From: an uncultured Saprospiraceae bacterium
GTDB taxonomy: Bacteria > Bacteroidota > Bacteroidia > Chitinophagales > Saprospiraceae
Length of the DNA: 50,936 nucleotides
Reading direction: 5' to 3'
NCBI GenBank assembly: GCA_937924145.1
Contig: CALDTJ010000110.1
Location: 1-50,936, forward strand
Shown here: positions 15,001 to 31,215 of the stretch, in pieces
How positions within the stretch are numbered: the stretch's first letter is position 1
Layout of the letters: every line of letters starts with the position of its first letter
The notes under the pieces: generated by a model
What the model saw: the letters and a program-made list of their open reading frames with translations, nothing else
What the model was told of the DNA's origin: nothing
The model's database searches: none
Translations under genes and position numbers: made by a program

Positions 15001-18000
15001 TAACACCAATTTTGAGTCACAGATTACGGTAGCAGGTTGGGGTGGTCCCGATGCACCGATTTGTAATTCAAGTGATCCTGTGGAGGTTTGTTTACCACCT
15101 CCGCCTTGTGTAGCTGAATTCGTTTTAGCAGAGAATAATGGAACTTTTACTGTTGGAATGATTCCAGATACTACTTGGGCGGCTCCTTTGAATACGGTAA
15201 ATAGCGCACAGATTACGCTAAGAATGCCAGCTAAGGGCTACCAAATCGAGAATTTCCAAAATGCGAATAGTCAAGTTCAATTTGAGGTAACTAGCCGTTT
15301 AAATAGTCCTGCTGTGGATGTTGGATATGATTACCTGAGTGTTACCTTAAACTCATTTGGGACAACCAATATTCCATTTAGTAAAGGAGTGAAAACCGAC
15401 TTGTTTAGTTTTGAAATCAATGGTGGATGTTCAACTGATAGCATCGCTTTAGTTGGAGATGGCAGTCTGTTTGATTTTCCAAATGATGAGGATGATAACG
15501 TTACGGCTCAAATGACCGTAGCAGGTTGGGGTGGTCCAGACCTACCCGTATGTGTTCAATCGGCTCCAATGCCAATTTGTACTTTAGGTATTGACGGAGT
15601 TACGGTAACCGATGTAACTTTCTGTGGAGCAAGTGATGGTACGATCACAATTACGGCTACTTGTGCAGGAGATCATACTCGATATAGTGTCGATAATGGT
15701 CGATCTTATCATGCTAATCGAACCTTTACGAATTTATCAGCAGGAAATTATTTTATTAGACTATACAATGATTCGACAGACTGTGAGGTGATTTATAATG
15801 CAAATCCAGTAGTTGTCAATGATGGTGCTGCTATCAATTTCACAGCTACGGCTATTGCGCCAACTTGTGCGGATAGTTCCAATGGGTCAATTACCATAGT
15901 AGCGAGTAATGGAAGTGGCAATTTTCAATATAGCATTGATGATGGTAGAATGTGGTCTACTACGGCTACTTTCACTGGTTTGATTAATGGAAATTATAAT
16001 TTAAAAGTCAGTAATTTAGATACGACTTGTATCACGACTTATGATACGACCTTTTTGACAATTAGCAGTTTACCTTGTGATTTTGATTCTGATAATGATG
16101 GAACCCCTGATTTAGCGGAAGACTTGAATATGGATGGAAATTTAGATAATGATAATACAGATGGAGATGAATTTCCAAATTATCTAGATGACGATGATGA
16201 CAATGATGGTATTCTGACAGCACTGGAAGAGGCAGGGCCAAATGATGGAGATGCCAACGGTGACGGTCAACCAGATTGCCTACAAGCCAACGTAGCGACT
16301 ACCCAAGATGATGGTGGGGCTTTCCGAACATTAGAGGTGAGTGGAGATGGAGCAACTTGTGACCGAATTATGGATTTCATCATTCACTCAGAAGGAGATA
16401 TGAGTGAAAATGATCCTAATTATGATTTCCCTTTCCAGTTAAATGCATTTACGATTCCTTGTGGCGGTACCGTTAATGTTCAGTTGTTTTACCACAATGT
16501 AACCAACCTAGCTGATTTTACCTACCGAAAATTTGGCCCAATGACGCCAGGAGGAGCAACTTCCGAATGGTATGATTTTCCAGTGACCATTTCGCAAGTT
16601 GCGATTGGTGGAAATACGATTGGGAGCGTAGCATTTCAGTTGACGGATGGACAACGAGGGGATGCGACGATTGTTGACAATATGATTGTAGATCCAGGGG
16701 GAATTGCAATGGATGTCAACGCAGGAGCAGATTGTGCAATTAGGTATAATCTAGTAAAAACAGGTGAGATCTACGAAGTTAGTCTAACTAGCGATACGAC
16801 CATTTCACCTAATAATATCAATGATTTAGCGATTACCTTAAGAGCGCCAACAGGTATTTTGACAGTAGGCAATATCGTGAATGCCAGTGCGAATGTGCTA
16901 TTTGAATTAGACACCACTTACACTGCACCAACGGAGTCACCTAATTACGACTATTTGGTTTTCAAATTAAGTCCTGCATCGGCTAACACTACTAATATTG
17001 ATATTTTTCAAGACAATACAGAATCATTATTTTCTTTTGAAAATGTCGGTGCTTGCTCCAATGATTCCTTATTTTTAGTAGGAATGGGAGCTGACTTTAC
17101 AGCACCAACTATCAATGGACAAGACATTTCTTCTAGTATCAATATCAATGGTTGGAACGCGCCTACTTGTGTTTCAAATGCTGGAGGTGCTTTATGTTTG
17201 CCTGCTCCAAGAGATACCGTTTTAGTTGATTTATTTGCGGGCTTACCGACGACGATTTGTTTAGACTCGGAGATTCAACTGCCTAATGGAGTTGGAAACA
17301 CCTCCGTATTATTCCAAGGGACGGCAGTAACGGCTGCAACTTCTAATTCAGATAGTTGTGTGCTATTCATGCCGCAAAGTACTTTTACTGGGACCGATTT
17401 TGTGACCGTTGTTTTTTGTGATAATGTGAACTCTAGTATTTGTGATACAACGACTTTTAATATTACGGTCGCAGCTCAACCAACTTGTTTAATCAACTAT
17501 TTTGTAGAAGATTCTTTAGGCAAATACAAGTTTAAGATGGTGAGTGACACCACTTGGAATATGCCACAAAATGAGGTCATTTCTGCCCAATTTACCATTA
17601 GAACCCCTACGGGATCTTTTGAGATGACCAATTTGCAGAATGGTATTGGAGTCGTAGATTTTGATCTACAAACAACAACTTCTCAAGGTGGTTACGACTA
17701 CCTGAATATAGTCTTACAAACGGTCAATACCTTAGATATTCCATTTATAAAAGGAGATACGATTTGTTTATTTAGTTTTGAAAATGGAGGCGCTTGTACC
17801 AATGATAGTCTCTATTTAATTGGTCAAGGCAGTCCTGTTTCTGCTCCGACAGTAGGAGATGAGCCAATTTTCTCGAAGATGGCAGTCCAAGGCTGGGGTG
17901 GAGGCACGACTTCTGTACCTGCTTGTGTGATGGGGACGGGGGTGCCTATTTGCCCAATTACTGCACCTGAAACGCAGACGATCAATCTCACTTTGAATCA

Positions 18001-21000
18001 AGATGAAACGGTAGCAGTATGCATTGATTCCGTTCTACAATTATTAAATAATGTAGGAACAGTCACAATTTGCGATCAAGGGACTAATATTTCAGTAGCA
18101 GTTACGAATAATGATAGTTGTGTAAATATAACTACCGCATCAGATTTCGTAGGAACTGAGACCTTATGTGTAGTACACTGCGATGCCTTCGAAACAGGTC
18201 ATTGTGATACGACTTATTTTATGGTGACGGTCATCGAGCCTACACCAGAACCAGTTACTTGTTTATACGAATACATTATCGAAGAATCGAATGGAGTTCA
18301 TACCGTTCGATTAGCGGTTGATTCGACGATAGCGGCTCCGTTCAATGCGACTAGTTCAATGCTAGTGGCAATTAGAGTGCCGACAACAGGTTTTAATGTA
18401 CCAACCGATAGCATCACTTCATTATTACCTGGTGCTATATTTGAAAATACGTCCAATGGGGTATTTATGGATAATGAAGAGCCTGATTTTGGATATATTT
18501 ATTTTGATATAAATGGTGCAGTCTCTCCTAATTATCAGCAAGGAGATACGTTAGATTTGTTCTCTTTTAGAGTAGAAGGCTGTATAGGTGGTGATATTCA
18601 CCTAGTAGGAACAGGAGCTAATTTTGCAAACCCAATGGTCAATGGAGAAGAAATTACTTCTTATTTAGCGATTGGGGCATTTTTAGCGGATGGCGGTGCG
18701 CCTTCTTGTGTGAATCCAGTAGGGACGACTATTTGTACTCCTGTTGTTCCGCCTACGCCAGCACCACAAGACACTTTACAGTTCGTCTTAGATTTTGAAA
18801 CAGCGGCTACGGTTTGTATAGATTCCGCTATACAATTATTGACCAATGTAGGAACTGCAAGTATTTGCGGACAAGGTACGAATATAACAGTTGGAGTAAC
18901 TAACGGCGATTCTTGTATTACCTTAACCCCAGCTACTAATTTTTCTGGTACTGAAATGCTTTGTGTTGTTCATTGTGATGCAGGAACTCCAGACTATTGC
19001 GACACCACTATTTTGATGGTAACGGTGAATCCAAATGATGGAACACCTCCACCACAACCACCATCAGAAGATACGACTTGTCATATAACTTTTGAATTAG
19101 AATTAGTGGATGGAACCTATACTGTTAGTTTCACACCAGATACAACTATACGGAACGTCATACCTGTAATTCCTAATCCTTTTACCAATTTGATGGAGAT
19201 AACTTTAAGAGCGCCTACGGGCAAATTAAATATAGTCAATCAAGTCGATTTTGGTACTGGAAGAGAATTTGTGTTAAAAAGATTCATCATCAATCCATCA
19301 GAAAGCTTAGGTTACGATTATTTTACTTTTGGTTTGAATGAGAACAACTCAACAACCGTAGATATTTCTTACGTTCAGGGTATTAAAACCGAATTATTTA
19401 CTTTTCAAAATTTTAATTGTGCGTTGGACAGCATCGCTTTAGTCGGAAAAGGAAGTCCGTTTACCACACCATTGATTAGTGATGAAAATATTGAATCTGT
19501 TGCACAAGTGAATAGTGCAAATTTAATTGTTTGTGTTTCGCCAGATGCGATTACGCCACCAGCTTTGGCGTTTTCGTCTACGAATACAGCCCCAACTGCG
19601 GGTGTTTGTAACGATGGAACGATTACGATTACAGCAACGGGTGGAACAGGCATTTACGATTATAGTATTGACGGTGGAAGCACTTGGCAATTCAACGGCA
19701 ACTTCTCTAATTTAGAAAATGGTACTTACCAAACCTTAGTTAGAAGTAGTGATTCTCTTTGTATTGGTACAGCCCAATCGGTCACTTTAAATACGGCAGA
19801 TTGTGGTCAAGTTGGCCCAGTTTGTAATGTTGTTCTTACCAGCATTGACACCGTTAATGCGACTTGTAGTCAACCTGACGGTAGGATTACGATCAATGCA
19901 ACGGGAGATAATTTAGAATACAGTATCAACACTGGCGCAACTTTCCAAAACAGCAATATTTTTGAAAATGTAACTGGTGGTATTTATAATATTGTAGTCC
20001 GAGATTCGGTAGAAACGACCTGTGAGGTCAATCAAACCATCACTTTGAATGGCACCCAATTGCCTGATATTCAAAATGTTATCATTAGTGATTCTGCTGA
20101 ATTTGCAAATGGAGCAGGGATCATCACCATTTTTGCCACAGCTAATTGTGAGGTACAATACAGTATTGATAATGGGCAAACATTCTTCCCTGGCAATTCA
20201 TTTACCACGCTTGGCGTAGGTACTTATAATATCGTTGTGACGGACTGTAGTGGTCTATGTCCAATTAATTATTTGAGTAATCCAATTATAATCGAAGAAC
20301 CACCAGTTTGTACTGTGAATGCAGGAGCGGATAGAACAATTTGTGCAGGTGCAGCGATTGCTTTATCAGCTACTGGCACAGGTTCGACATTCAGTTGGGC
20401 ACCAACCGATGGTTTAAGCTGTACGGATTGTCCAAATCCTATTGCTAATCCAATGACTACGACAACTTATGTGGTGACAAATAATGATGGCAATTGTACG
20501 GCTACAGATACCATCATCGTCAATGTAGCACCAGCGATTACTGCTGATTTTGTCTTTATGACAAGTTGTACTGATCTATCGGTTGTTTTCACGGATAGCT
20601 CTGCTTCTACTGCCAATATTACTGCTTGGTCGTGGGATTTTGGAGATGGAAGTGCATTGAATACTGAGCAAAATCCAAATTATACTTACTTGGCATCTGG
20701 CAGTTATACCGTCAGTTTGACAACTACAATTGAGGGAGATTGCGAAAATACAATTTTTAAAACAGTAGAAGTTGGAAATGGATTAATGGGTACGATCAGC
20801 GATGATTTATCTATTTGTACAGGTGATTGTACCACTTTGATGGCATCGGGTGGAACGAATTATGCATGGGCAGCATCACCAGATTTGAGCGCCTTGGATA
20901 TTCCAAATCCAATAGCATGTCCAACTCAGACAACAACTTATTACGTCACCATTTCTGATGATAATGGATGTTCAACGATGGATAGTGTCACGATTACGAT

Positions 21001-24000
21001 TGATGCACCGACCCTTGGAGTTTCTGCCTCGGGCGCAGCTTGCGATCAAGACAATGGTTCGATTACCGTTTTCGCATCTTTCCCGAATGGTGGCCCACTT
21101 GAATTCCAAATAGTAGATAATGATGAATGGTTCACAGAAAATAGCTTCACAGGTTTAGCGTCAGGTACTTATAACGTTCGGATTAGAACGGCAGACGGTG
21201 GTTGTATCACTTCTTTTGATGGCAATCCAGTGATAATTAATCAAGTGCAAGGCCCAACGATTGACGATGTTTCTGCAAAGAATCCAACGGAATGTAATAC
21301 TGCCACTGGCGAAATTTTATTGACGGCTTCTGGGTCTAATGCCTTGATTTATAGTATTGATGATGGGACCACTTGGAGTCCTTCTCCTTCATTTACGGAT
21401 TTAAATGAGGGTGTTTATGATATTCGCATCGCTTATGCCGATACTTCTTGTTTGACTCCTATTAGAATGGTGGAATTAGTTGCACCAACTGCGCCAAATA
21501 TTCTTGGTGCTACAAAAGAAGATCCTTCTACTTGTGAAAGTACGGACGGTCGAATTTTTGTTTCGGTTGAAAATGGAGCGAGCCAACCATTTGAATATAG
21601 TATTGACGGGACAAATTGGCAAACAGACAGTGTAATAAATAATTTAGCTGCTGGAACCTATGCTGTTTTTGTAAGGTATAGCGACGAATCCTGTGTAACT
21701 GAATTTAATACACCAGTAACATTACAACCGGGTGCTGGACCAAATATCTTATTTGCCTTTGGCGAAGACCCAACGACTTGTGAAAGTATGGACGGTCAGA
21801 TTACCGTTTCAGTAGAGGAAGTGACTGGGAGAGCATTTGAGTACAGTTTAGATGGCATTGACTGGCAGGCAGAGCATGTATTCGATAGTTTAGCTGCTGG
21901 CCAATACGATATTTTTGTTAGATACGATGATGGTACTTGTGTGACTCAGTGGGATATTCCAGTAGAAATACAACCTGCTGCTGCACCATTTATCAACGAT
22001 GTGGCGAGTATCAATCCAACAGGGTTTGACTTAGCAGATGGAGAGATTTTTATCAATGCTTTTGGCAGTAGCGATATTGAATATAGTATTGACAATGGAG
22101 ATAACTGGCAAACAAATCCAGATTTTGTAGGCTTAGATACAGGTAGTTACACCATTCTAGTTCGATATACTGATGGAAGTTGTGAAACGCCTTATTTAGG
22201 AAATGGCGGTGGTCCAGTTATTCTAAGAGTAGGAGATTGCTTGAGATTTATTGAAGTCATTGGAAATAATCCACAAGGTTGTGGATCGAATGATGGAAGT
22301 ATTTTCACTATCGTAGAACCATTTGGTAATGTTGAATACAGCATCAATAATGGAGCAGATTGGCAAGATTTTGAAGTTTTTGAAAATCTCGGCGCAGGGA
22401 CTTACAACATTTTAGCTCGTCGAACGGATATTGCTTGTCAAATTGATACCACCATTACGTTAGGAGAAGGCGAAGATTTAGAGATATTTAGTGTAGACGC
22501 TATTGACAAAGATCTTTGTAATAATTTCGGTGGGGAGATTTTTATTAATACCAATATTTTTAATAATATCGAATTTAGTATCGACAATGGAGCGAATTGG
22601 CAAGCCAATAATTTATTTAGTAATGTAGATACTGGCACTTACACCATTTTGGCAAGAAGCCTAGATTTAATTTGTCAAGCAACTTGGGATCAACCTGTCG
22701 TGGTTCGACCAGTACCAACTGCGGATATTACAAATGTTTTGGTTGGAAACCCAACGAGTTGTGGCAATTTAGACGGTTCCATTATTATAGAAACAAACTT
22801 TGGTTTTAATACTGAATATAGTATTGATAATGGCGCAACTTGGCGTTTTGATAATCAATTTTTGAACCTACCTTCTGGGAATTATACTGTAAAAATAAGA
22901 ACGGGAAGTTGTGAAGTAGACTACGTCAATAACCCAGTTAATTTGGGTGCAGCGAATGGTTTTACCGTGGTAGATCCTATTCCAAACGCAGCGACTTGTA
23001 CTGGCACTTTGATGTCATTGTCCGTTACCTTAAGTGATAATATTAGTAGTTGGTTGGTCAATAATGGAAGCATTACTAACCCTAATATAAATGGCGCTAC
23101 GCTAACTTTTGACGCCGTAGTCGAAGGTTTATTTAATGAATATGAGTTAACCTTCACAAATTCAATAGGTTGTGAAGTGACTGAATCCTTTGTTATTTTC
23201 CAAGCGGATGATACCGAAGCAGACTTCGTAGTGATTGAGCCTTACTGTAAAGAAATGGAAGTTTCGCTTCTATTTACAGGTACAGCAACACCGATGGCGA
23301 ACCTAATTTGGGAAGTTGATGGCGGTGTACTAGTTTCTAGTTCACCTGCTACTGATACGGAACCAGCAGGCAACGAAATCGTCGTTCGGTGGGACAACGA
23401 AGGTAGTCGATTAATCAAATTAACGGTTGATGATGGTGGCTGCATAGACGACGAATACGAAAGTATTTTTGTCAGAAAATTACCACTAGCCAATGCTGGT
23501 GAAGATGTGTCCATCTGTATGAGTAATTGTACGCAATTGGAAGGAACTGGAACGGGTGTTTGGTACTCATGGAGTCCTGCAACGGGACTAAGTTCGCCAG
23601 ATGTACAAAATCCAATCGCTTGTCCAACCGAAACAACGACTTATACCTTGACGGTCATGAGTGCGGACGGTTGTGTATCGACGGATGAAGTAACGGTCAA
23701 TGTAGAAACGAATTTCATTACGACAGGCCCAGATGTTACGATTTGTGAAGGCGAATCGGCAAATTTAAGTGTGACAGGTGCGAACAATTATACTTGGACT
23801 TCTGCCATGACCTTAGATAATCCAACGTCCCCCAATCCAGTAGCCACACCTGTAGAAACAACGACTTATAGTGTCTTTTCTATGAATGAAAATGGTTGTA
23901 TGGATACGGCAACGGTAACGGTCTTTGTGAATCCATTGCCAGAAGCAGTCGCTTGCGAGGATAAGACGATTTGTAGAGGAGATAGCATTCAATTGATTGT

Positions 24001-27000
24001 GACCACTTTTGCCCAATACAGTTGGAGTCCAACGAATACTTTAATCAATCCAACGAGTGGAACGCCAATCGCATTCCCTACGGAAACAACCACTTATACG
24101 GTAACTGTTACCGATGAATTTGGCTGTACAGATACAGACGAAGTAGTCGTATTTGTGAATACACCACCAACGGTTACAGCAAGTGCGGATGTGGATATTT
24201 GTGCGGGTGCATCCACGAGATTAAATGCGTCGGGTGCTAATGCCTATGTTTGGTCACCAATCGTAGGATTAAGTAATCCAAACTTATCCAATCCAATTGC
24301 AACGCCTTTAGTTACAACGACTTATACGGTAACTGGAACAGATGCCAACGGCTGTACGCACACGGATCAAGTGACCGTAAATGTGGTAGAAAACGCTGGC
24401 ATCTCAGCAGGTTTGCCAACTACAATCTGCGAAGGCGAAACGACTCAATTAGTAGCAACAGGTGGCACAAATTACCAATGGTCACCAGCAACGGGCTTAA
24501 ATAGCACCAACATCGCTAACCCAATAGCTAATCCGACGGTAACGACGACTTACACTTTGACGGGTGTCAGTGCCAATGGTTGTCCATCTATTTCTACCTT
24601 AACGGTTACGGTTTTACCAAAACCAGAACCAGTGGCTTGTGAGGATAAAATGATTTGTCTAGGCGATAGCATCCAATTGATTGTGACCACTTTTGCCCAA
24701 TACAGTTGGAGTCCAACAAATTCTCTAATTAATCCAACGAGTGGAACACCAACCGCTTTTCCAACAGAAACAACTACTTATACGGTTACTGTGACGGACG
24801 AAAATGGCTGTACCAATACTGACGAAGTTACTGTCTTTGTAAATAATCAGAGTGCAATTGCTTTAGGTCCAGATATTACCCTTTGTGAAGGTGGTCCAGT
24901 ACCACTAGATGCAGGTACAGGTATTGCCTACGAATGGATTCCAAGCACTGGTTTGAGTGATCCAACGATTAGAAATCCGATTGCTACTGTAAATAGCACG
25001 ATTACTTATACAGTTTTAGTGACGAACCAGAGTGGTTGTATTGGTAGAGATGAAATCACGATTACCGTGAATGGTGCGCCGAATGCAGATGCTGGCCCTC
25101 CAGTGGTAATCTGCCCAGGCGAAACGGGTCAATTACAGGCATCAGGCGGAGTGAGTTACCAATGGAGTCCAACGGATGGATTGAGTAATCCAAATATCGC
25201 AAATCCATTTGTTACCACTGACCGAGTAACGACTTATCAAGTGACTGTGACCGATGAATTTGGTTGTACCTCAACGGATGAAACTTTAGTAGCAGTCTCT
25301 TTACCATTAATGATAGATCCTGTGATTACCGATGCCACTTGTTGTGGAACGGGCGGTATGGCAGCATTGAACGTTTCAGGTGGTTTTGGTAATGCAACTT
25401 TTGAGTGGTCGCCCAATGTATCGACTACCAATAGTGCGACTAACCTAACCCCAGGTTTTTATAAAGTGGTCATCGAAGATGCTGAAAGATGTGGATTAGT
25501 TTTCACTTTTGAAATAAAAGAAGATTGCAACGGTTGTCCAGATATGTTCGCTGAAAATGAGCGATGTATCAACGATACGTCCAATACAGAAAGAATCTGT
25601 TTACCAATCGCTTTAGAAGATATTGGTAATTACGAAATATTAGTTGATGGAAATGATTACAATCCAGATCACGGTTGTGATTTTGAGAACTTGACCGCTT
25701 ATTCTTATGCCTTGGTAGAAGGGCAGGGGACAACGGGCATGTACAGAGTCGAAAACTGGGAAGTCAATGGTCAAATGTACGCAACGGAAGTAGAAACCAT
25801 GCAAGAATTGACCAATTGGATGAATACCGTAGACCCTACTGGAAACTGGATCAATAACTCCTCAATTGTAACGATTATTGGTGGAAACCCTAATAACGCT
25901 TACGGTACGATGAAGGTGATTCAATTAACCAAATGGGTAGAAACGATGCTTCAACCTGATGTAACAGGCGTGGCGACGAGTACGGTTCTAGAAATAGATG
26001 TAACTGGTTTGACAGACCCGAGAACAATCATTATTACCAATGAATTGACTTGTTGTTCAGATACCATTATCCTAAGACGATGTGGTCAGGCACAACCTTG
26101 TGTAGAAGAAGTCATTGCCCAAAATCAATTTAATGAAAGTATTACTTGTGGCGAAACGGCTAGTATTTGTCTAGACATTCCATTCAGCAATATTAACAAC
26201 TTTGAGGTAGTGGCAAATGACAATCTTTATGCAGGAGAAATCAAGGCTTGTAATTTCGATTCGATGTTTGCCTACACTTACTTCACTTTACCGGGAAGAG
26301 GTGCGGCTGGCCCTTATCGAATTAACTCCTGGTTGATTGATGGACAAATGAATTCAGGGATGTTTAACGACCTCGGTGATTTTGTCGCATTGATGAATCA
26401 AATAGACCCATCAGGAAATTGGATTTTAGATGAATCAACTTTGACCCTGCAAGGTGGAAAATCTACTACCGACTACGGTGAAATCAAAATCGAACAAATC
26501 GCTACGGGTTCTATTGCCACTTTAGAAATCAATTCTAACCTCATTCCAATGGGCACGGAATTGACTTTCACAAATGGCAATTACGAAGTATTATTCATTA
26601 ATAAAAATACAGGTTGTCAAGATCGGATTTTAGTCAATGTGTCTTGTGATGATACCCAAACGCCAATTGATACTACGATGAATCCTGTGGATACGATGAT
26701 TACGCCAATTGACACGACGACGAATCCTGTAGATACGATGGTCACGCCAATTGACACGACGATGAATCCTGTGGATACGATGGTCACGCCAGTAGATACC
26801 ATGACGAATCCTGTGGACACGATGGTTACGCCAGTTGATACCACGACGAATCCTGTGGACACGATGGTCACGCCAGTTGATACTACGATGAACCCTGTGG
26901 ATACGATGACTGAAATATCTTGTGATTTCCTCACCGATGATGTCTTATTTGCTACGGTGAATCGCTGTGACTCGATGGTTCAGTTCTGTTTAGATATTCC

Positions 27001-27991
27001 TTATGCGACGATCAATGATTATCGAATTTATATTGATGGACAAGTTTATGGCGGTGCTTTAAGTAGTTGTGGTACAAATACTTATGTAGAAGTAGGAGTA
27101 GGCGGCTATAATTTCAAATTTGAAAATCTAGTAACCAATTGCCAAGATAGCATCATCCTAGCTGTCACCTGCGCTACGAACGCAAGAGAAGAAATAATTG
27201 AATTGGTAGAAGGCGATACGATGATCTATTGTCCTCAATCGGAGAATCTAGTCGGAGATATTATTTCCATCGAAAATACTTGTCCAGCCGAGTCGGGTAC
27301 GATTGCTACTGTCGAATTAGATACCGAAGATTTCTGTGTGAATGTAGTTGGTTTAGTGGAAGGAGAGGAAAGTGCTTGTTTTGTAGTCTGTGATGCCAAT
27401 GGCGTTTGTGATACGACCAATGTAACGATTCTAGTAACGCCAAAATCGGTAGAAACGCCTATAGCCAACTTAGATATCGATACAACGGAGCAATTCTCTC
27501 CAATCACAATAGATGTCTTAGCCAATGACAGCATTTTTGGAACATTGGAAAATATGGAAATCCTAGAAAAACCACAAAATGGTACAGCAGTCTTCAATGC
27601 GGACAATACCATTACCTATACGCCAGACGAAACGTTCTGTAATTCAGTAGCACCAGATTTCATCATGTATGGCATTTGTAATGAAAATGGCTGTGATACC
27701 GCTATGGTAGAAATTTTAGTTCCATGTACGACCTTAGAAATCATGAACGGATTTTCTCCAAACAATGATGGCATCAACGACTTCTTCACCGTCAAAGGCA
27801 TTGAAGCATTCCCAGAAAATGAAGTGCAAATCTTTAACCGTTGGGGAACACTAGTCTTCAAACAACAAGGCTACAAGAACAGATGGGATGGTACTTTTGA
27901 TAATCAACTCTTGCCAGATGGTACGTACTTCTACTTAATTACGGTAGGCGAAGGAGAGAAATATTCTGGCTTTGTTCAGATTAATAGATAA
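12086..27991 (+). CDS. Giant (5301 aa) mosaic cell-surface protein with a T9SS type-B (gliding-motility-associated) C-terminal sorting domain; SprB-like adhesin class
   Basis: A single uninterrupted ORF in the track. It has a signal peptide (MPNNYWFKTLFFLLATFIVGKVDAQ) and about 21 SprB-like ~80-aa repeats of the form C..DG.I.....GG.....Y.YSID.G..W......F..L..G.Y...V.....C. It also has 7 copies of a ~155-aa module, an Asp-rich TSP3-like segment, a PKD domain, and 10 repeats of ~72-76 aa (C.G....L.A.G...Y.WSP..GLS....NPIA.P..TTTY.VT...GC). Near the C-terminus are two full copies plus a truncated third copy of a ~180-aa Cys-rich module and a 14-aa x6 linker. The C-terminus NGFSPNNDGINDFFTVKGIEAFPENEVQIFNRWGTLVFKQQGYKNRWDGTFDNQLLPDGTYFYLITVGEGEKYSGFVQINR is typical of the CHU_C / type-B CTD. 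Confidence 0.9.
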   Translation: MPNNYWFKTLFFLLATFIVGKVDAQVKFKVALSPDSTFYQVSLLSEIGPFFASSQNFVPTATVTLIAPTGELTPASIANQKGIWSGPDTYINPVGGLDQDYFVFSLNGAVNDIVFTPGLEVDLFTFTNSGNCAGAVELMDNDNDPFREQDPTANVGNHITVFGNGQGNSYGGIHDPRSANCMGFPPCNLTIGSVTKTDILTCGADDGSITINATNGTGTLEYSINNGLNWFTTNTFNNLAIGNYTIIVKDDNCEQTYDTNPVTILEPNIAVTLTDSLPPSCNSSLDGQITVAASGGVAPYEYSINNGANWTTNGAFTSLGNGIFNIKARNVDSTCETSYPNAVVFSTQGINLTLVKTDISCTNGTNGTISITAEGGMGSFQYSIDNGVTWLASANFTDLAAGNYMVLARNSNGTCEVAFEGNPVVISESALNFTVTPTDPDCNGVADGTISIDLTGETSSFEYTIDDGTNWVTNATFSNLDIGAYTIKVRKVGGTCETAFSNNPVVLDRQMINISVSTFAGGCDDGMTNSITVAASGGNASFQYSKDDGATWQNSNIFNSLANGDYTIKVRTTDLSCETAFVNNPVSFASSAINVGVSSSPPACHDLSNGSITVTANGGTGSFIYSIDGGANYSNLTNFTGLANGNYNIFVKNADGTCETEYPNNPIQFNTTAISFSVSENQASCLAATDGSISMLGNGGSGSYEYSIDSGMTWSAVATQQNLAADLYYVFIRSDNQNCELEFANNPIDLRPDALTISIVSNTPPSCETGNDGSLVLAAAGGGSTNYQYSIDDGATYSGMSTFQNLSTGDYNLKAKIAGTDCEVTYVNNPVRVENFSCEPPPPVDSCFLRYVLTENEGVYTISLATDTTWLGFSATTSNAQVSIRVPTGGFSIANFTNKIGGVQFGPAGFSINPSEATGFDFFTFNLQATTISIPYIKGDTVELFSFENSGTCTGGEMYLIGDEGVSDPGVANTNFESQITVAGWGGPDAPICNSSDPVEVCLPPPPCVAEFVLAENNGTFTVGMIPDTTWAAPLNTVNSAQITLRMPAKGYQIENFQNANSQVQFEVTSRLNSPAVDVGYDYLSVTLNSFGTTNIPFSKGVKTDLFSFEINGGCSTDSIALVGDGSLFDFPNDEDDNVTAQMTVAGWGGPDLPVCVQSAPMPICTLGIDGVTVTDVTFCGASDGTITITATCAGDHTRYSVDNGRSYHANRTFTNLSAGNYFIRLYNDSTDCEVIYNANPVVVNDGAAINFTATAIAPTCADSSNGSITIVASNGSGNFQYSIDDGRMWSTTATFTGLINGNYNLKVSNLDTTCITTYDTTFLTISSLPCDFDSDNDGTPDLAEDLNMDGNLDNDNTDGDEFPNYLDDDDDNDGILTALEEAGPNDGDANGDGQPDCLQANVATTQDDGGAFRTLEVSGDGATCDRIMDFIIHSEGDMSENDPNYDFPFQLNAFTIPCGGTVNVQLFYHNVTNLADFTYRKFGPMTPGGATSEWYDFPVTISQVAIGGNTIGSVAFQLTDGQRGDATIVDNMIVDPGGIAMDVNAGADCAIRYNLVKTGEIYEVSLTSDTTISPNNINDLAITLRAPTGILTVGNIVNASANVLFELDTTYTAPTESPNYDYLVFKLSPASANTTNIDIFQDNTESLFSFENVGACSNDSLFLVGMGADFTAPTINGQDISSSININGWNAPTCVSNAGGALCLPAPRDTVLVDLFAGLPTTICLDSEIQLPNGVGNTSVLFQGTAVTAATSNSDSCVLFMPQSTFTGTDFVTVVFCDNVNSSICDTTTFNITVAAQPTCLINYFVEDSLGKYKFKMVSDTTWNMPQNEVISAQFTIRTPTGSFEMTNLQNGIGVVDFDLQTTTSQGGYDYLNIVLQTVNTLDIPFIKGDTICLFSFENGGACTNDSLYLIGQGSPVSAPTVGDEPIFSKMAVQGWGGGTTSVPACVMGTGVPICPITAPETQTINLTLNQDETVAVCIDSVLQLLNNVGTVTICDQGTNISVAVTNNDSCVNITTASDFVGTETLCVVHCDAFETGHCDTTYFMVTVIEPTPEPVTCLYEYIIEESNGVHTVRLAVDSTIAAPFNATSSMLVAIRVPTTGFNVPTDSITSLLPGAIFENTSNGVFMDNEEPDFGYIYFDINGAVSPNYQQGDTLDLFSFRVEGCIGGDIHLVGTGANFANPMVNGEEITSYLAIGAFLADGGAPSCVNPVGTTICTPVVPPTPAPQDTLQFVLDFETAATVCIDSAIQLLTNVGTASICGQGTNITVGVTNGDSCITLTPATNFSGTEMLCVVHCDAGTPDYCDTTILMVTVNPNDGTPPPQPPSEDTTCHITFELELVDGTYTVSFTPDTTIRNVIPVIPNPFTNLMEITLRAPTGKLNIVNQVDFGTGREFVLKRFIINPSESLGYDYFTFGLNENNSTTVDISYVQGIKTELFTFQNFNCALDSIALVGKGSPFTTPLISDENIESVAQVNSANLIVCVSPDAITPPALAFSSTNTAPTAGVCNDGTITITATGGTGIYDYSIDGGSTWQFNGNFSNLENGTYQTLVRSSDSLCIGTAQSVTLNTADCGQVGPVCNVVLTSIDTVNATCSQPDGRITINATGDNLEYSINTGATFQNSNIFENVTGGIYNIVVRDSVETTCEVNQTITLNGTQLPDIQNVIISDSAEFANGAGIITIFATANCEVQYSIDNGQTFFPGNSFTTLGVGTYNIVVTDCSGLCPINYLSNPIIIEEPPVCTVNAGADRTICAGAAIALSATGTGSTFSWAPTDGLSCTDCPNPIANPMTTTTYVVTNNDGNCTATDTIIVNVAPAITADFVFMTSCTDLSVVFTDSSASTANITAWSWDFGDGSALNTEQNPNYTYLASGSYTVSLTTTIEGDCENTIFKTVEVGNGLMGTISDDLSICTGDCTTLMASGGTNYAWAASPDLSALDIPNPIACPTQTTTYYVTISDDNGCSTMDSVTITIDAPTLGVSASGAACDQDNGSITVFASFPNGGPLEFQIVDNDEWFTENSFTGLASGTYNVRIRTADGGCITSFDGNPVIINQVQGPTIDDVSAKNPTECNTATGEILLTASGSNALIYSIDDGTTWSPSPSFTDLNEGVYDIRIAYADTSCLTPIRMVELVAPTAPNILGATKEDPSTCESTDGRIFVSVENGASQPFEYSIDGTNWQTDSVINNLAAGTYAVFVRYSDESCVTEFNTPVTLQPGAGPNILFAFGEDPTTCESMDGQITVSVEEVTGRAFEYSLDGIDWQAEHVFDSLAAGQYDIFVRYDDGTCVTQWDIPVEIQPAAAPFINDVASINPTGFDLADGEIFINAFGSSDIEYSIDNGDNWQTNPDFVGLDTGSYTILVRYTDGSCETPYLGNGGGPVILRVGDCLRFIEVIGNNPQGCGSNDGSIFTIVEPFGNVEYSINNGADWQDFEVFENLGAGTYNILARRTDIACQIDTTITLGEGEDLEIFSVDAIDKDLCNNFGGEIFINTNIFNNIEFSIDNGANWQANNLFSNVDTGTYTILARSLDLICQATWDQPVVVRPVPTADITNVLVGNPTSCGNLDGSIIIETNFGFNTEYSIDNGATWRFDNQFLNLPSGNYTVKIRTGSCEVDYVNNPVNLGAANGFTVVDPIPNAATCTGTLMSLSVTLSDNISSWLVNNGSITNPNINGATLTFDAVVEGLFNEYELTFTNSIGCEVTESFVIFQADDTEADFVVIEPYCKEMEVSLLFTGTATPMANLIWEVDGGVLVSSSPATDTEPAGNEIVVRWDNEGSRLIKLTVDDGGCIDDEYESIFVRKLPLANAGEDVSICMSNCTQLEGTGTGVWYSWSPATGLSSPDVQNPIACPTETTTYTLTVMSADGCVSTDEVTVNVETNFITTGPDVTICEGESANLSVTGANNYTWTSAMTLDNPTSPNPVATPVETTTYSVFSMNENGCMDTATVTVFVNPLPEAVACEDKTICRGDSIQLIVTTFAQYSWSPTNTLINPTSGTPIAFPTETTTYTVTVTDEFGCTDTDEVVVFVNTPPTVTASADVDICAGASTRLNASGANAYVWSPIVGLSNPNLSNPIATPLVTTTYTVTGTDANGCTHTDQVTVNVVENAGISAGLPTTICEGETTQLVATGGTNYQWSPATGLNSTNIANPIANPTVTTTYTLTGVSANGCPSISTLTVTVLPKPEPVACEDKMICLGDSIQLIVTTFAQYSWSPTNSLINPTSGTPTAFPTETTTYTVTVTDENGCTNTDEVTVFVNNQSAIALGPDITLCEGGPVPLDAGTGIAYEWIPSTGLSDPTIRNPIATVNSTITYTVLVTNQSGCIGRDEITITVNGAPNADAGPPVVICPGETGQLQASGGVSYQWSPTDGLSNPNIANPFVTTDRVTTYQVTVTDEFGCTSTDETLVAVSLPLMIDPVITDATCCGTGGMAALNVSGGFGNATFEWSPNVSTTNSATNLTPGFYKVVIEDAERCGLVFTFEIKEDCNGCPDMFAENERCINDTSNTERICLPIALEDIGNYEILVDGNDYNPDHGCDFENLTAYSYALVEGQGTTGMYRVENWEVNGQMYATEVETMQELTNWMNTVDPTGNWINNSSIVTIIGGNPNNAYGTMKVIQLTKWVETMLQPDVTGVATSTVLEIDVTGLTDPRTIIITNELTCCSDTIILRRCGQAQPCVEEVIAQNQFNESITCGETASICLDIPFSNINNFEVVANDNLYAGEIKACNFDSMFAYTYFTLPGRGAAGPYRINSWLIDGQMNSGMFNDLGDFVALMNQIDPSGNWILDESTLTLQGGKSTTDYGEIKIEQIATGSIATLEINSNLIPMGTELTFTNGNYEVLFINKNTGCQDRILVNVSCDDTQTPIDTTMNPVDTMITPIDTTTNPVDTMVTPIDTTMNPVDTMVTPVDTMTNPVDTMVTPVDTTTNPVDTMVTPVDTTMNPVDTMTEISCDFLTDDVLFATVNRCDSMVQFCLDIPYATINDYRIYIDGQVYGGALSSCGTNTYVEVGVGGYNFKFENLVTNCQDSIILAVTCATNAREEIIELVEGDTMIYCPQSENLVGDIISIENTCPAESGTIATVELDTEDFCVNVVGLVEGEESACFVVCDANGVCDTTNVTILVTPKSVETPIANLDIDTTEQFSPITIDVLANDSIFGTLENMEILEKPQNGTAVFNADNTITYTPDETFCNSVAPDFIMYGICNENGCDTAMVEILVPCTTLEIMNGFSPNNDGINDFFTVKGIEAFPENEVQIFNRWGTLVFKQQGYKNRWDGTFDNQLLPDGTYFYLITVGEGEKYSGFVQINR
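16076..16279 (+). other. Asp-rich calcium-binding (thrombospondin type-3-like) segment of the giant protein
   Basis: CDFDSDNDGTPDLAEDLNMDGNLDNDNTDGDEFPNYLDDDDDNDGILTALEEAGPNDGDANGDGQPDC, with reiterated DxDxDG motifs. Confidence 0.65.
20535..20775 (+). other. PKD domain of the giant protein
   Basis: ADFVFMTSCTDLSVVFTDSSASTANITAWSWDFGDGSALNTEQNPNYTYLASGSYTVSLTTTIEGDCENTIFKTVEV, containing the WDFGDG...H/YTY motif. Confidence 0.8.
26660..26911 (+). repeat. In-frame tandem repeat of six 42-bp units (twelve 21-bp half-units) encoding TP(I/V)DT(T/M)x-NPVDTMx
   Basis: Translation: TPIDTTMNPVDTMITPIDTTTNPVDTMVTPIDTTMNPVDTMVTPVDTMTNPVDTMVTPVDTTTNPVDTMVTPVDTTMNPVDTMT. The antisense ORF at 26617-26934 in the track is its mirror image. 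Confidence 0.95.
27733..27988 (+). other. T9SS type-B C-terminal sorting domain of the giant protein
   Basis: The last ~85 aa, from LEIMNGFSPNNDGINDFF to GFVQINR. Confidence 0.85.
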
Positions 27992-28000
27992 TATGGATGC

Positions 28001-28048
28001 GGTGGGCAGTGGGCAGTAAATCAGTAGGCAGTGAGGCAGTGGGCAGTC
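28001..28048. repeat. Degenerate direct reiteration of the word GGCAGT(G/A)
   Basis: ggtgggcagtgggcagtaaatcagtaggcagtgaggcagtgggcagtc. The ggcagt word also appears at 49446-49455 and in the hairpin at 50713-50744. Confidence 0.8.
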
Positions 28049-28184
28049 AACGTCTAAGCACACGACCTATATTGAATGTCCTGTAAGTATGACCTAGGAA
28101 AATCTCCGATAAAATCGGAGTTGTAAACCTGTCATCCTGTATAATCTTGTCATCCTGTAAAATTTAAGGTGTTTTTTGGCAAAT

Positions 28185-28222
28185 GCCCAGTCAGTTTTGG
28201 TGGCTGGGTATTCTTTATTTAT
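28185..28222 (+). terminator. Probable terminator of the giant gene
   Basis: gcccagtca (28185-28193) pairs with tggctgggt (28201-28209; one mismatch), then attctttatttat. A degenerate copy of this hairpin sits at ~29491-29530. Confidence 0.5.
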
Positions 28223-28432
28223 AACTTGCTGATAATTAAACTATTATAGGTTGTAACTGCTTGTTGTGCAATCTTAAAAGATAAGGTCCAATGGTTATTG
28301 AAAGTCTAAAGTATCTGTATTGTTTACAGTCTTGCAATCTTAAGACATTGGTAAGGAACATTAACTCTTTAGAAACAAACAGAAGGAACTACTAATGCAG
28401 AGGTTATAAATAAATACTTAGGAGGTAATATT

Positions 28433-28460
28433 CTGTAAATATTAACTGAAATATTTACAG
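28433..28460. promoter_or_regulatory. Perfect 11-bp-arm palindrome directly upstream of the orphan ORF pair (candidate operator or 5' hairpin)
   Basis: ctgtaaatatt-aactga-aatatttacag, ending 22 nt before the TTG at 28482. Confidence 0.35.
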
Positions 28461-28481
28461 ATAAACCTTGAAGTAGGATTA

Positions 28482-28841
28482 TTGTTTGAAATTGATTATT
28501 TTTACTCAAAAAATAAACATTTTAACATTTTGGGTAAAAAGAAAAAAAAGGATAGGATAGCTGAAAATTTTAAAAAAGACAATAATGGTTTTTTTGAAAG
28601 AGCTGATCCTGTAACTACTGTACTTGGATTTTTATTGTTGATATGCAGTCTTGTTTATGGGTATGCTTACGATAAGGCTAATATAGAAAACAGACTAAAA
28701 AACTTAGAAAATCCAAAGCAAATTGGAATTGAGAATATCAAGGTACATGAGGTGAGAAATAAAATTAATTTATCAGAGTGTCAAAATTATTATGTAGTAT
28801 TAGATTCTGTCCAAAACTTAATAAATGAAAGATGTCACTAA
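28482..28841 (+). CDS. Hypothetical small membrane protein (119 aa, TTG start), AT-rich orphan
   Basis: ORF from the track. One predicted TM helix (VTTVLGFLLLICSLVYGYAY) and a Lys-rich N-terminus. By hand, one 60-nt line sampled at 28561-28620 is ~27% GC. The stop overlaps the next ORF's start (ATGTCACTAA). It has no internal ATG, so it depends on a TTG start. Confidence 0.4.
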   Translation: MFEIDYFYSKNKHFNILGKKKKKDRIAENFKKDNNGFFERADPVTTVLGFLLLICSLVYGYAYDKANIENRLKNLENPKQIGIENIKVHEVRNKINLSECQNYYVVLDSVQNLINERCH

Positions 28842-29428
28842 AAATTTTAAATATTATTTTAATTGGGCTTATAGGTTTATTTTCTTCTTCTACCTACAAA
28901 TTAATCGAATATAATTATAGGTTGAGTAAATTAGAAAAAGCAAACGAAAATAATGAAAATTTCTATTATATTTTCGTAATGCAAGATGTAGATAAGAATT
29001 GTAATTTAGATACTGACGTTTTGGAAGAATATGTTAATTTAAATGAAATTGATGGTTTTTTTTACCACTTAAATGTAGTTGTTCCGAGTTACTGTCAAAC
29101 TATAAATAGCGATGTAACGAATTTTAAATACAATAAACCTGTCAGTAAAGATTTTAGTATTCATGAGAAAATTAGAAACACGGAAGGTTACAACTATGCT
29201 CCTCAAAACTGTAGATATTGTTTGTTGCCAATAATGGTATTTTTAAATTTTGAATTTACTGAAGAAGAAAAAGACGAAATTTATTCTGTATTAATAGATT
29301 TTATAAAAATTGAAGATGAATTTAATAAAGGTAAGATTGATGAATTACAGAGAGGAAGAGAATACGTAGATTATTATGATAGATTTAATTCGTTATTAAA
29401 TAGAATTGCCAGTAAAATAGAATTATAG
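28832..29428 (+). CDS. Hypothetical membrane-anchored protein (198 aa), AT-rich orphan
   Basis: ORF from the track. N-terminal TM/signal anchor (ILNIILIGLIGLFSSS). The rest is N/E/K/Y-rich, and I recognise no motif. Confidence 0.5.
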   Translation: MSLKILNIILIGLIGLFSSSTYKLIEYNYRLSKLEKANENNENFYYIFVMQDVDKNCNLDTDVLEEYVNLNEIDGFFYHLNVVVPSYCQTINSDVTNFKYNKPVSKDFSIHEKIRNTEGYNYAPQNCRYCLLPIMVFLNFEFTEEEKDEIYSVLIDFIKIEDEFNKGKIDELQRGREYVDYYDRFNSLLNRIASKIEL

Positions 29429-29469
29429 AAATCCCAATGTTACAAGTATAAATTTTAGATTGAGTACTC

Positions 29470-29524
29470 TGATTTTGTACAGATTAATAGCTCAGTCAGC
29501 TTTGATGGTTTGGCATTCTTTGTT
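29470..29524 (+). pseudogene. Degenerate copy of the last ~20 nt of the giant ORF fused directly to a copy of its terminator hairpin
   Basis: tctgattttgtacagattaatag versus 27966-27988 tctggctttgttcagattaatag (20 of 23). ctcagtcagctttgatggtttggcattctttgttttata versus 28186-28223 cccagtcagttttggtggctgggtattctttatttata. Confidence 0.75.
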
Positions 29525-29700
29525 TTATATCTCCTCATTAACCCCCCGAATAAACTCCATAATCTCCGTCCGCCCTTCCTTCTGAATAGAAGAAGTCACA
29601 AACTCCTGAGGCAACTCATCCCAATGTTCCAATAGGGTAGTGCGAATTCGGTCAATATTGGGCTGGACCTCAGCGGGCTTTAAGCGATCCGTTTTTGTAT
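29525..29700 (-). pseudogene. Non-functional duplicate of the 3' end of engB (~176 nt)
   Basis: My manual alignment to 30625-30800 shows about 12 mismatches in 176 nt, e.g. the shared run cattaaccccccgaataaactccataatctccgtccgccc. It lacks the rest of the gene. Confidence 0.85.
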
Positions 29701-29785
29701 GAACGAGATGGTACTTTTGACAATCAACTTTTACTTTTTCGAACGTACTTCTACTTAATTATAGTAGGTGAAGGAGAGAAATATT
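29701..29785 (+). pseudogene. Degenerate copy of part of the type-B CTD-coding 3' end of the giant gene
   Basis: ggtacttttgacaatcaactt...gtacttctacttaattatagtaggtgaaggagagaaatatt versus 27877-27965 ggtacttttgataatcaactc...gtacttctacttaattacggtaggcgaaggagagaaatatt, with indels. It ends exactly at the Uma2 stop codon. Confidence 0.8.
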
Positions 29786-30487
29786 TTATTTTTTAGCTAA
29801 TAGGTCATTAGGATCAATACCCAATTCTCGTAACTTTTGTGCAAGAATTTCTTTTTCTGCGATTGCCTCTTGCTTCTCTGCGATTGCCTCTTGCTTCTCT
29901 GCGATTGCTTTTTCCTTTTCTGCAACTACTTCGAGGTGATTTTTGAAAGGTTGTCCATTAGGATGAAGAATAGCAAGACTTTCTGCCTGTAATTCAAGAT
30001 GAAACCCCAAGTATTGACTGGTCCATCTTTGAGGGATGGGATGCAGTTCTACCAACTTATTATTTATTCTTTGATAAATTTGTAGATTGTTTTTTTGAGG
30101 ATAATAGATAATGTATTCCTCTACACCGTACTTTTCGTAGAAAGCTAACTTATGCGCCATTTCCTTCTTTCGATTACCAGGCGAAAGGATTTCAACAACT
30201 ACTTGAAATGGGATATTATCCTCATTCCATTGTAAATAAGAACTTCTGTCCCCTTTGGGCCGACCAACTGCCGCCATGACATCTGGTGCAATGCGGATGC
30301 GATTGTTTCCTTCTTCAGGATACCACAGTAGATCTCCTGCTACGAAAACGGTTTGATTTTGTGTAATTTCTTCAAATCCAGATTTGATGGTGGTCAGCCA
30401 ATCGTACTGGATGGTGTTTTCTGCCATAGGTTTTCCGTCTGAACTTGGGTAATAAACGGGTCTGTTCTTCGCTAAATTTACAGTCAT
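29786..30487 (-). CDS. Uma2-family (DUF820, PD-(D/E)xK) endonuclease
   Basis: Typical Uma2 layout: YYPSSDGKPMAENTIQYDW...APDVMAAVG...FQVVVEILSPGNRKKEMAHKLAFYEKYGVEEYIIYYPQKNNLQIY, with a C-terminal tail LAQKLRELGIDPNDL. I prefer the ATG at 30487 (MTVNLAKNRP) over the track start at 30580. Confidence 0.8.
   Translation of the reverse strand: MTVNLAKNRPVYYPSSDGKPMAENTIQYDWLTTIKSGFEEITQNQTVFVAGDLLWYPEEGNNRIRIAPDVMAAVGRPKGDRSSYLQWNEDNIPFQVVVEILSPGNRKKEMAHKLAFYEKYGVEEYIIYYPQKNNLQIYQRINNKLVELHPIPQRWTSQYLGFHLELQAESLAILHPNGQPFKNHLEVVAEKEKAIAEKQEAIAEKQEAIAEKEILAQKLRELGIDPNDLLAKK
29859..29921 (-). repeat. Three tandem 21-bp units (AIAEKQE heptads) in the Uma2 gene
   Basis: gcgattgcctcttgcttctct occurs twice exactly (29859-29900), followed by a degenerate third unit. 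Confidence 0.9.
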
Positions 30488-30624
30488 AAATACTTTTGAT
30501 TTAGTGGAAAAATTAGCCTCCTCTATTTTAAAATTACTAAAAAATAAGGAAAGCACAAACTTTGTGTTATTATTATTCAACGTCTCGACCAGTTGTCCTT
30601 AATTTATCATTTGTTCGATGTTCT

Positions 30625-31215
30625 TTATATCTCCCCATTAACCCCCCGAATAAACTCCATAATCTCCGTCCGCCCCTCCTTCTGAATAGAAGAAGTAATA
30701 AACTCCTGCGGCAACTCATCCCAATGTTCCAATAGGGTAGTGCGAATCCGATCAATATTAGGCTGGACCTCAGCAGGCTTTAAGCGATCTGTTTTGGTGT
30801 AAACGATAATAAAAGGCACTCGCTTATCTCCCAACCAATTCATAAAATCAATATCAATTTGTTGAGCGGGAATATTGGCGTCGATTAAAACAAAAGCACA
30901 GGCTAAGGTTTTTCGGTGTTGCAAGTAGCCTTCAATCATGATTTCCCACTCTCTTCTTTTCTTTTTGGAAATTTTCGCATAACCATACCCTGGTAAATCG
31001 ACCAAATACCATTCTAGGTCCACCAAGAAATAGTTAATCATTTGCGTTTTTCCTGGCTTTTTGGAAATTCTCGCTAAACCATTTCTTTTCGTTAGCATAT
31101 TGATTAACGAAGATTTCCCTACATTCGATCTTCCAATAAAAGCATATTCTGGCCTTTGGTCCTTTGGACATGAAGTGATGCTTGGGTAACTGCCTACATA
31201 TTTTACGTCTAGCAT
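30625..31215 (-). CDS. engB: Ribosome-biogenesis GTPase YsxC/EngB
   Basis: 196 aa with G1 GRSNVGKSSLIN, G3 DLPGYG and G4 TKTDR. Confidence 0.9.
   Translation of the reverse strand: MLDVKYVGSYPSITSCPKDQRPEYAFIGRSNVGKSSLINMLTKRNGLARISKKPGKTQMINYFLVDLEWYLVDLPGYGYAKISKKKRREWEIMIEGYLQHRKTLACAFVLIDANIPAQQIDIDFMNWLGDKRVPFIIVYTKTDRLKPAEVQPNIDRIRTTLLEHWDELPQEFITSSIQKEGRTEIMEFIRGVNGEI

Follow-up and report, generated by a model that had tools for sequence, protein, structure and literature searches.

A permuted copy of a convergent gene junction in a Saprospiraceae contig and its probable origin as a recombination scar

The genome of a Saprospiraceae bacterium carries a giant gliding-adhesin gene and the essential GTPase gene engB in convergent orientation, and the DNA that separates them contains shuffled second copies of the ends of both genes. 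How such an arrangement could arise is the question that this locus raises. The window, i.e. the whole stretch of DNA that was analyzed, corresponds to one complete metagenomic contig of 50,936 nt. Its gene order is the giant gene (+ strand), two orphan open reading frames (ORFs), a gene of the Uma2 family (- strand), engB (- strand), porP/sprF and gldK-L-M-N. The giant gene (ORF 12086-27991, + strand) encodes 5301 aa and ends in a CHU_C domain (Pfam, 1.3e-30), the type B C-terminal domain (CTD) of the type IX secretion system. The real engB (30625-31215, - strand) encodes a YihA/YsxC GTPase of 196 aa (Pfam MMR_HSR1), which has orthologues at 83-95% aa identity within a conserved gldKLMN-porP-engB synteny. 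An earlier note had described the region 29470-29785 as a circularly permuted pseudo-copy of the junction between the two genes. On balance, we believe that this 316-nt block is a non-functional recombination scar, left at a horizontal-transfer hotspot on the terminator that the two convergent genes share. This reading is based on the comparison of sequences.

Self-BLASTN and a repeat search of the window revealed four homologies in 29465-29785. The longest one links 29524-29706 to the 3' end of engB at 30624-30806, with 170/183 identical positions (93%) in an ungapped alignment (E=2.5e-74). This orphaned copy of engB spans its final 183 nt, lies on the - strand, shows neither an indel nor an internal stop and is referred to as Z', its counterpart in the real gene as Z. 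Next to it, 29707-29785 (X', + strand) matches CTD codons of the giant gene at 27887-27965 (67/79, 85%, ungapped, E=1.7e-19). The match may reach 27877 if one GATGG slippage is allowed. X' is joined to Z' via GAACGA and abuts the stop codon of the Uma2 gene. On the other side, 29465-29490 (y1', + strand) repeats the final 26 nt of the giant ORF, i.e. its last codons (22/26 versus 27962-27987). The real 3' end of the giant gene (27877-27991, + strand) thus holds source-type sequence for X' (27877/27887-27965) as well as y1' (27962-27987). Finally, 29486-29532 matches 28182-28226 (38/47, two 1-nt gaps), which comprises the terminator hairpin, its T-tract and the initial 9 nt of the engB end. The hairpin copy itself (H', 29486-29523, + strand) is joined straight to y1' at AATAG/AAATG. 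Taken alone, the gene-end and hairpin matches are weak (window-wide E of 0.14 and 0.012), yet both are positioned exactly as collinearity predicts.

X' stops at the position that corresponds to 27965, and y1' starts at the one that corresponds to 27962. This leaves a 3-4-nt overlap (TATT/TACT), so the block represents exactly one circularly permuted unit. The similarities proposed in the earlier note are all real, and the circular permutation is exact, while the block starts at 29465 instead of 29470. The copied end of the giant ORF and the copied terminator were also recognized correctly, except that the TAA stop codon was not copied (y1' ends with AATAG) and that H' no longer folds. The free energy of H' is -5.8 kcal/mol with a z-score of +0.8, which is no better than shuffles, compared to -18.5 kcal/mol and -3.2 for the real hairpin, and H' is not called by the terminator scan. 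In X', one 9-nt patch destroys the conserved PDG motif, and X' and y1' hold non-synonymous changes. All gene-end remnants, Z' of engB and y1' plus X' of the giant gene, are 5'-truncated, lie beyond the working ends and have a direct orientation. The repeated segments show four spacings, namely 1820 nt (X), 1503 nt (y1), 1305 nt (H) and 1100 nt (Z). Short microhomologies occur at the joints (AATAG/AAATG at y1'|H', GAACGA at Z'|X' and TAYT at X'/y1'). Upstream of y1' lies a 15-nt engB micro-fragment, ATCCCAATGTTACAA (29431-29445, + strand), which matches 30718-30732 at 14/15 positions (p about 0.004; 0.4% of shuffles). The adjoining 29446-29458 weakly matches 27707-27719 (12/13, reached in 5% of shuffles).

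For the comparison with relatives, eleven related Saprospiraceae loci were used, and 93 loci were fetched overall. Loci are given by L numbers, and P0002 stands for the contig of the closest Uma2 homologue. These relatives are different species and not strains of one species. A pseudo-copy at the junction was found in none of the relatives by self-BLAST of 14 loci. The gldK-porP-engB genes are convergent on a giant CHU_C gene in L002, L004-L008, L058 and L091, and the order from gldN to engB is kept also in L092 and L093. L091 is the closest syntenic relative (GldK 98%, PorP 91%, EngB 90%, CTD 81%).

In the window, the stop codon of the giant gene is followed by a conserved 3' untranslated block, W (27992-28181, + strand), made up of GGCAGT/CAGT words, CCTGT words and then TTAAGGTGTTTT. 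Relatives which keep the giant gene show the same order after its stop codon, with CAGT/GGCAGT words, a motif ending in CCTGTCATCCTGTAAAAATATATTAAGGTGTTTTT and the hairpin. This architecture is present in L002, L004-L008 and L091, with a word block that is only weakly recognizable in L002. The contig of L001 stops short of the giant gene and shows just the hairpin-proximal part of W. As the word block and CCTGTCATCCTGTAAAAATATATTAAGGTGTTTTT are kept in relatives with the giant gene, W is ancestral, and it is the pseudo-copy that lost it. The suggestion that a 193-nt word block had been inserted behind the real gene end is hence reversed. W is followed by the real intrinsic terminator H (28182-28217, + strand; terminator scan), a hairpin of 12 bp with a T-tract. 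Among 9 species, 5 of its 12 pairs show compensatory changes and none is broken.

The real hairpin leads into TTTATAACT (28218-28226), which equals the first 9 nt of the engB end including the reverse-complemented stop codon. Together with the T-tract it forms the first of three copies of a core, ATTCTTTATTTATAACT (28210-28226), at the left edge of a 2.4-kb insert. The second copy, ATTCTTTGTTTTATATCT (29515-29532), is the compact hairpin/engB-stop junction inside the pseudo-copy, and the same abutment is found in L007, L002 and L004. The third copy, GTTCTTTATATCT (30620-30632), consists of a T-tract remnant and the real engB stop at the right edge of the insert. The three core copies are 13-18 nt long. 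They share TTTATAWCT (at 28218, 29524 and 30624) and delimit units of 1306 and 1100 nt, each in the order repeat-cargo-repeat. The 1306-nt unit runs from the AT-rich cargo c1, which holds the two orphan ORFs, to y1', H' and the core. The 1100-nt unit consists of Z', X', Uma2 and the core. Two nested core-bounded units would fit the unequal spacings of the repeats.

The distance from the hairpin to the engB stop is 4 nt in L007, 19 nt in L002 and 21 nt in L004, and the pseudo-copy is collinear with L007 over the hairpin and the engB end (29490-29704). A compact ancestral junction, as postulated in the earlier note, thus exists between hairpin and engB, but not the expected junction of about 45 nt between the two genes, since the shortest interval from stop to stop is 167 nt (L002). 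The slot between hairpin and engB stop differs in its content. Non-coding inserts are found in L008 (about 130 nt), L006 (about 150 nt) and L005 (about 270 nt with a tandem repeat). L091 (9102-9818) and, by gene order, the P0002 contig carry a Uma2 gene, which is absent in L002 and L004-L008. In L001 the slot is occupied by an HNH nuclease gene (PF01844, 5010-5240) plus an ORF of 126 aa, and in L003, where the synteny is lost, by a PDDEXK_2 nuclease gene (PF12784, 10874-11731). The flanks are conserved and syntenic and the accessory content differs among relatives, which supports the slot as a putative cargo and horizontal-transfer hotspot. This agrees with the expectation of different cargo in related genomes and of a hotspot at this site, which ranges in the relatives from an empty slot through non-coding DNA of 130-270 nt to the nuclease genes named above. 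As a rule, hotspots are defined at the gene level over many genomes of one species, here it is a comparison between species. As also stated before, no recombinase gene is visible; no ORF of at least 90 aa across the 51-kb window belongs to an integrase or transposase family. L092 (10592-10662) and L093 (10531-10601), independent Joint Genome Institute (JGI) assemblies of the closest EngB relative (95% aa), both end 71 nt past the engB stop with a sequence unrelated to the hairpin. That both end at one point suggests strain-level structural heterogeneity or a repeat at the site.

The origin of the engB copy can be followed at the codon level. Z and Z' differ at 11 sites in 174 in-frame nt, and 9 of these are synonymous third positions. 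For the two amino-acid differences (I/V and G/E), both states are found in functional orthologues. The changes were polarised with L092 and L091. Four synonymous and no non-synonymous changes belong to the branch of Z', three synonymous and two non-synonymous ones to the branch of the real engB, while two synonymous sites could be assigned to neither branch. If an in-situ duplicate had decayed neutrally, about 60% of the changes would be expected to be non-synonymous, and at least 9 synonymous changes out of 11 would occur with a probability of 0.003-0.012. For four out of four synonymous changes on the Z' branch, the probability under a dead duplicate is 0.003-0.006. The synonymous bias and the lack of indels and stops indicate that, through almost the whole of its separate history, Z' was the end of a functional engB. 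Z' would be the fossil of a second functional engB allele, roughly 7% diverged, and not a duplicate that decayed in situ. This divergence is far smaller than that to any database relative (82-84% DNA identity). The intact state of Z', in contrast to the degraded H' and the non-synonymous changes in X' and y1', agrees with Z' having been orphaned last. Furthermore, the joint of H' and Z' is compact and lacks the Uma2 gene which separates hairpin and engB in L091.

A step in the identity to L092 or L091, which would have told the native allele from the other one, appears neither along engB nor over 10 kb. An exact-protein look-up of EngB gave no match. Scans with EngB reached only 90% in genomes and only 83% in metagenomes, and a large protein search returned one relative of 95%. 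The genome, metagenome and protein collections thus hold nothing closer than 95% EngB aa identity (about 84% DNA). All EngB relatives at 83-95% aa are Saprospiraceae or metagenome-assembled genomes of Bacteroidota.

The following course of events would account for these observations. In the ancestral order, the stop codon of the giant gene would be followed by the conserved 3' untranslated block, the hairpin, the T-tract and the engB stop. At least twice, DNA may have come in from genomes that are related but differ by about 7% at this locus, each time with a homology anchor in one flanking core gene, while the inner side was joined by microhomology. Such a process would be homology-facilitated illegitimate recombination, or a single crossover of a circle, which is topologically equivalent. 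Because the incoming piece would have supplied a complete new gene end together with cargo, the old gene end would have been pushed inward and not deleted. In what we place as the first event, a fragment with giant-gene end, W, hairpin, core and c1 would have found its anchor in the giant gene, with a joint to the resident CTD codons at their AT-rich TATT. What remained would have been y1'-H'-core-Z', with Z' still the end of a working engB. The intermediate allele implied by this step would read giant gene-W-H-core-c1-y1'-H'-core-engB, with an engB ending in EFVTSSIQKEGRTEIMEFIRGVNEEI and without Uma2. In the second event, an L091-type fragment, extending from the CTD end through Uma2 and core to engB, would have been anchored in engB and joined at engB nt 183 via GAACGA. 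As a result, Z' would have been orphaned and X' placed beside it. Small deletions, of W in the copy and of y1-W-H between X' and Uma2, could have followed as a third event. The permuted order then results as a by-product of displacement from both sides. Along this path the donors have structures of a kind that is seen naturally, and both essential gene ends stay intact at every step. The path accounts, too, for the fresher state of Z' compared to H' and y1'.

Several points weigh against this reading. The nearest relative is about 82-84% identical at the DNA level and does not belong to the same species. With neither a same-species genome nor the intermediate allele seen, the order of the events is one that we infer. 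The path needs two later deletions as well as two illegitimate joints that arose independently within 4 nt of each other (TATT), and this coincidence of the joints is explained more naturally by a single circular intermediate. X' has a decayed patch, although it is predicted to be as young as the orphaning of Z'. The allele statistics are based on a small sample of 11 differences, and the joints are known from the assembled contig alone and not from reads.

The single circular intermediate corresponds to a Campbell-type integration, which we consider rather unlikely. Here, one reciprocal exchange would have inserted a circular compact junction unit (X'-y1'-H'-core-Z', closed at Z'|X'), or a 2.4-kb circle that carries this unit with c1 and Uma2. 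The site of the exchange would be either the 13-18-nt core or a TATT where c1 and Uma2 cargo lay side by side. It requires the fewest illegitimate joints and fits well with a permutation of exactly one unit with a 3-4 nt terminal overlap and with two units bounded by three core copies. As the recipient, an allele in the order giant gene, W, H, core, c1, Uma2, core, engB would look natural for the hotspot, i.e. L091 plus one cargo. However, a circle of 316 nt, or one with cargo inside the CTD codons, has no obvious natural source, a Campbell integration predicts a single spacing and not four (1820, 1503, 1305 and 1100 nt), no recombinase gene is present, and the loss of W needs a separate deletion. 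Simple tandem amplification in situ, which the earlier note had named as one of two fitting routes, does not fit in that form, because the engB copy diverged under purifying selection and lacks the Uma2 gene of L091. In an extended form, at least three junction copies would have been partly replaced by cargo, and the engB allele would later have been swapped by homologous recombination. The periodic order of the engB micro-fragment (29431-29445), y1'-H'-Z', X' and Z would fit a degraded array, and a later allele swap could give the synonymous bias without a foreign pseudo-copy. Even so, we regard it as quite improbable: it needs a triplication and at least four precisely placed deletions or replacements, and the joints between engB and giant-gene sequence differ (30732|27707 versus 30806|27887). 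Moreover, H'-Z' is compact without the Uma2 that L091 (and by gene order also the P0002 contig) has there, and the four synonymous and zero non-synonymous changes on the Z' branch imply that the source of the duplication was already a distinct allele.

Another explanation would be active targeting, in which the nucleases found in the slot (Uma2, HNH and PDDEXK_2) cut empty sites and thereby home to the core of terminator and engB stop, and the scar results from aberrant repair with template switching. The occurrence of three unrelated nuclease families in one slot of different relatives would fit such homing, as would the Uma2 identity of 71% aa compared to 81-98% for the neighbours, the close Uma2 homologues at other loci, and the microhomology and short templated-looking fillers at the joints. 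We hold this explanation to be highly unlikely, as the endonuclease activity of Uma2 is no more than a prediction (PMC3424549), each nuclease occurs in just one of the 93 loci, c1 encodes no nuclease and the pseudo-copy retains an uncut compact core. The same low probability is given to the related idea that the 13-18-nt core might be a dedicated Saprospiraceae landing site for small nuclease cassettes without a recombinase. If true, genes of the Uma2 family would form a new class of homing elements located between genes. Finally, the alleles of two co-occurring strains (about 93% identical) may have been stitched into one contig during metagenome assembly. In favor of this, the window equals one entire contig of a metagenome, the second copy has the look of an allele and both assemblies of the nearest relative end precisely here. 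Nevertheless, no more than 6 nt are shared with the source sequences at the joints Z'|X' and X'|Uma2, much less than any assembler k-mer, and the pseudogene features (deleted W, degraded hairpin, destroyed PDG, lost stop) are unlike a live allele. We give an assembly artefact the least credence of all.

Displacement at a hotspot, the reading we prefer, can be compared with known systems. Homology-facilitated illegitimate recombination was proposed for orphan arrays, such as the type VI secretion (T6SS) effector-immunity modules of Vibrio cholerae and the orphan modules of Rhs and contact-dependent inhibition (CDI) systems (PMC5361080). In these arrays, as proposed here, a conserved gene serves as anchor, a new 3' end with cargo is installed and the old 3' end is kept downstream in a 5'-truncated form. 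Repeated events build the array without a dedicated recombinase. In contrast to these systems, neither of the two genes is a polymorphic toxin here, and the cargo consists of two orphan membrane ORFs and Uma2 instead of immunity genes. A further difference is that displacement from both sides of a convergent pair makes the remnants of two genes and their shared terminator abut in a permuted order. Horizontal-transfer hotspots flanked by core genes have also been described (Oliveira et al., 2017, PMC5635113). The locus resembles them by conserved flanks (engB, porP and gldKLMN on one side, the giant adhesin gene on the other) with variable content, by the lack of mobile-element machinery and by one compositionally foreign cargo. 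It differs by its tiny scale (0-2.4 kb), pinned to a 13-18-nt stretch at the T-tract and stop codon.

Integrative islands which target the 3' ends of genes carry a replacement end and are bordered by attL/attR direct repeats. Similarly, the last 183 nt of engB form a direct repeat on either side of a 0.9-kb cargo, with the displaced copy on the far side, and the two engB-end copies differ mostly at synonymous sites. Unlike such islands, the locus has no integrase or excisionase, further chromosomal fragments (X', H', y1') flank the repeat, the spacings are unequal and the "island" measures only about 1.1 kb. Microhomology-mediated break-induced replication (MMBIR) and fork stalling and template switching (FoSTeS), with templated filler insertions, are known mainly from eukaryotes, and to our knowledge no such process has been documented for Bacteroidota. 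The block shares with it short segments from within 3 kb that are joined in shuffled order, with 2-6 nt of microhomology and 13-15-nt fillers. It deviates in that the engB segment is allelic and not identical to the local template, and in that all pieces are direct and none is inverted.

Among these systems, the putative scar works like displaced gene-end remnants at a core-flanked transfer hotspot. It is ordinary genome plasticity of a known kind, with no new element or mechanism, and it is unusual mainly in that the displacement it records came from either side of two convergent genes. It shows repeated entry of foreign DNA at a few nucleotides between core genes without visible mobile-element machinery, and that old gene ends can persist as fossils of earlier alleles. 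The codon-position bias in a duplicated gene end can separate an allele displaced by recombination from a decayed local duplicate. The terminator of engB and the giant adhesin gene, beside the gldKLMN genes of type IX secretion, is a place to seek strain-specific cargo and a likely cause of assembly breaks.

The cargo c1 (28227-29430, + strand) has a GC content of 22-28% compared to a background of about 40%. Its two ORFs, 28482-28841 (119 aa) and 28832-29428 (198 aa), have about 25% GC, overlap by 10 nt (ATGTCACTAA), and each encodes a single hydrophobic segment near the N-terminus. They look like a pair of coupled small membrane proteins, judging from these features. No family of Pfam, PADLOC or PHROGs fits either ORF below E=0.01 (phrog_26680 alone came up, at E=0.097), neither has a homologue among 5.8e9 proteins, and the DNA of c1 matches no plasmid or phage DNA. 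A transposon reading of the 2.4-kb insert was rejected. There is no transposase, and the ends show only a weak, asymmetric TGATAA(A)TTAA resemblance; a repeat search and inspection found no convincing terminal inverted repeats at 28227 and 30623. The 9-nt repeat TTTATAWCT does flank the insert, but it is imperfect and part of the longer core.

The Uma2-family gene (29786-30487, - strand as engB) encodes a predicted PD-(D/E)XK nuclease of about 233 aa (Pfam PF05685, 4.6e-18; PADLOC candidate PDC-S03, 4.7e-13), with alternative starts upstream up to 30580. In L091, a counterpart with 71% aa identity has an equal slot and orientation, and by its gene order so has the counterpart on the P0002 contig (79%). 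Near the 3' end of the gene (29853-29932), three tandem 21-nt repeats encode AIAEKQE heptads of the C-terminal tail, and this tail shows a weak H-NS N-terminal-like match (E=0.003). A read-through fusion of Uma2 with Z' was considered, as the frames agree, and rejected because two stops intervene. Altogether, three unrelated stand-alone nuclease genes (Uma2 PF05685, HNH and PDDEXK_2) are located just downstream of engB in the loci compared.

The region upstream of Uma2 (30488-30623, - strand) holds a half-copy (30577-30614, 33/38) of a palindromic element, 10 nt from the engB stop. The complete element (46098-46160) has a stem of roughly 22 bp (CAGTTGTCCTTCATTAATC...) and is located upstream of a gene for a LuxR-type response regulator. 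It is absent from all 93 fetched loci. A global alignment had hinted at an L091-type remnant of the engB end upstream of Uma2, which was rejected as the stretch is this half-copy.

Some minor observations concern the untranslated DNA of the relatives and the giant gene. In the 3' untranslated region (3'UTR) of the giant gene (27992-28222; L091 9838-9990), TTAAGGTGTTTT is almost invariant before the hairpin. The hairpin-proximal ~90 nt show 75-80% DNA identity, whereas the adjacent CTD codons reach 68-71% in the same relatives. Rfam gave no match in 27800-30800. By its conservation pattern, the composite could be a 3'UTR-derived RNA or a protein-binding array. Small non-coding inserts lie in or close to the slot in further relatives. 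L005 contains a 128-nt tandem repeat right after engB (1129-1395) and hairpin-rich DNA inside the W block (about 1560-1950), which resembles a miniature inverted-repeat transposable element (MITE). An inverted-repeat element is located in L006 (about 10610-10740). In L011, a 1.3-kb insert is flanked by repeats of 130-160 nt (2134-2293 and 3446-3602), which match in both orientations. Within the giant gene of the window, a run of near-identical TPIDTT/NPVDTM peptide repeats (26617-26934) gives rise to a long spurious ORF on the opposite strand.

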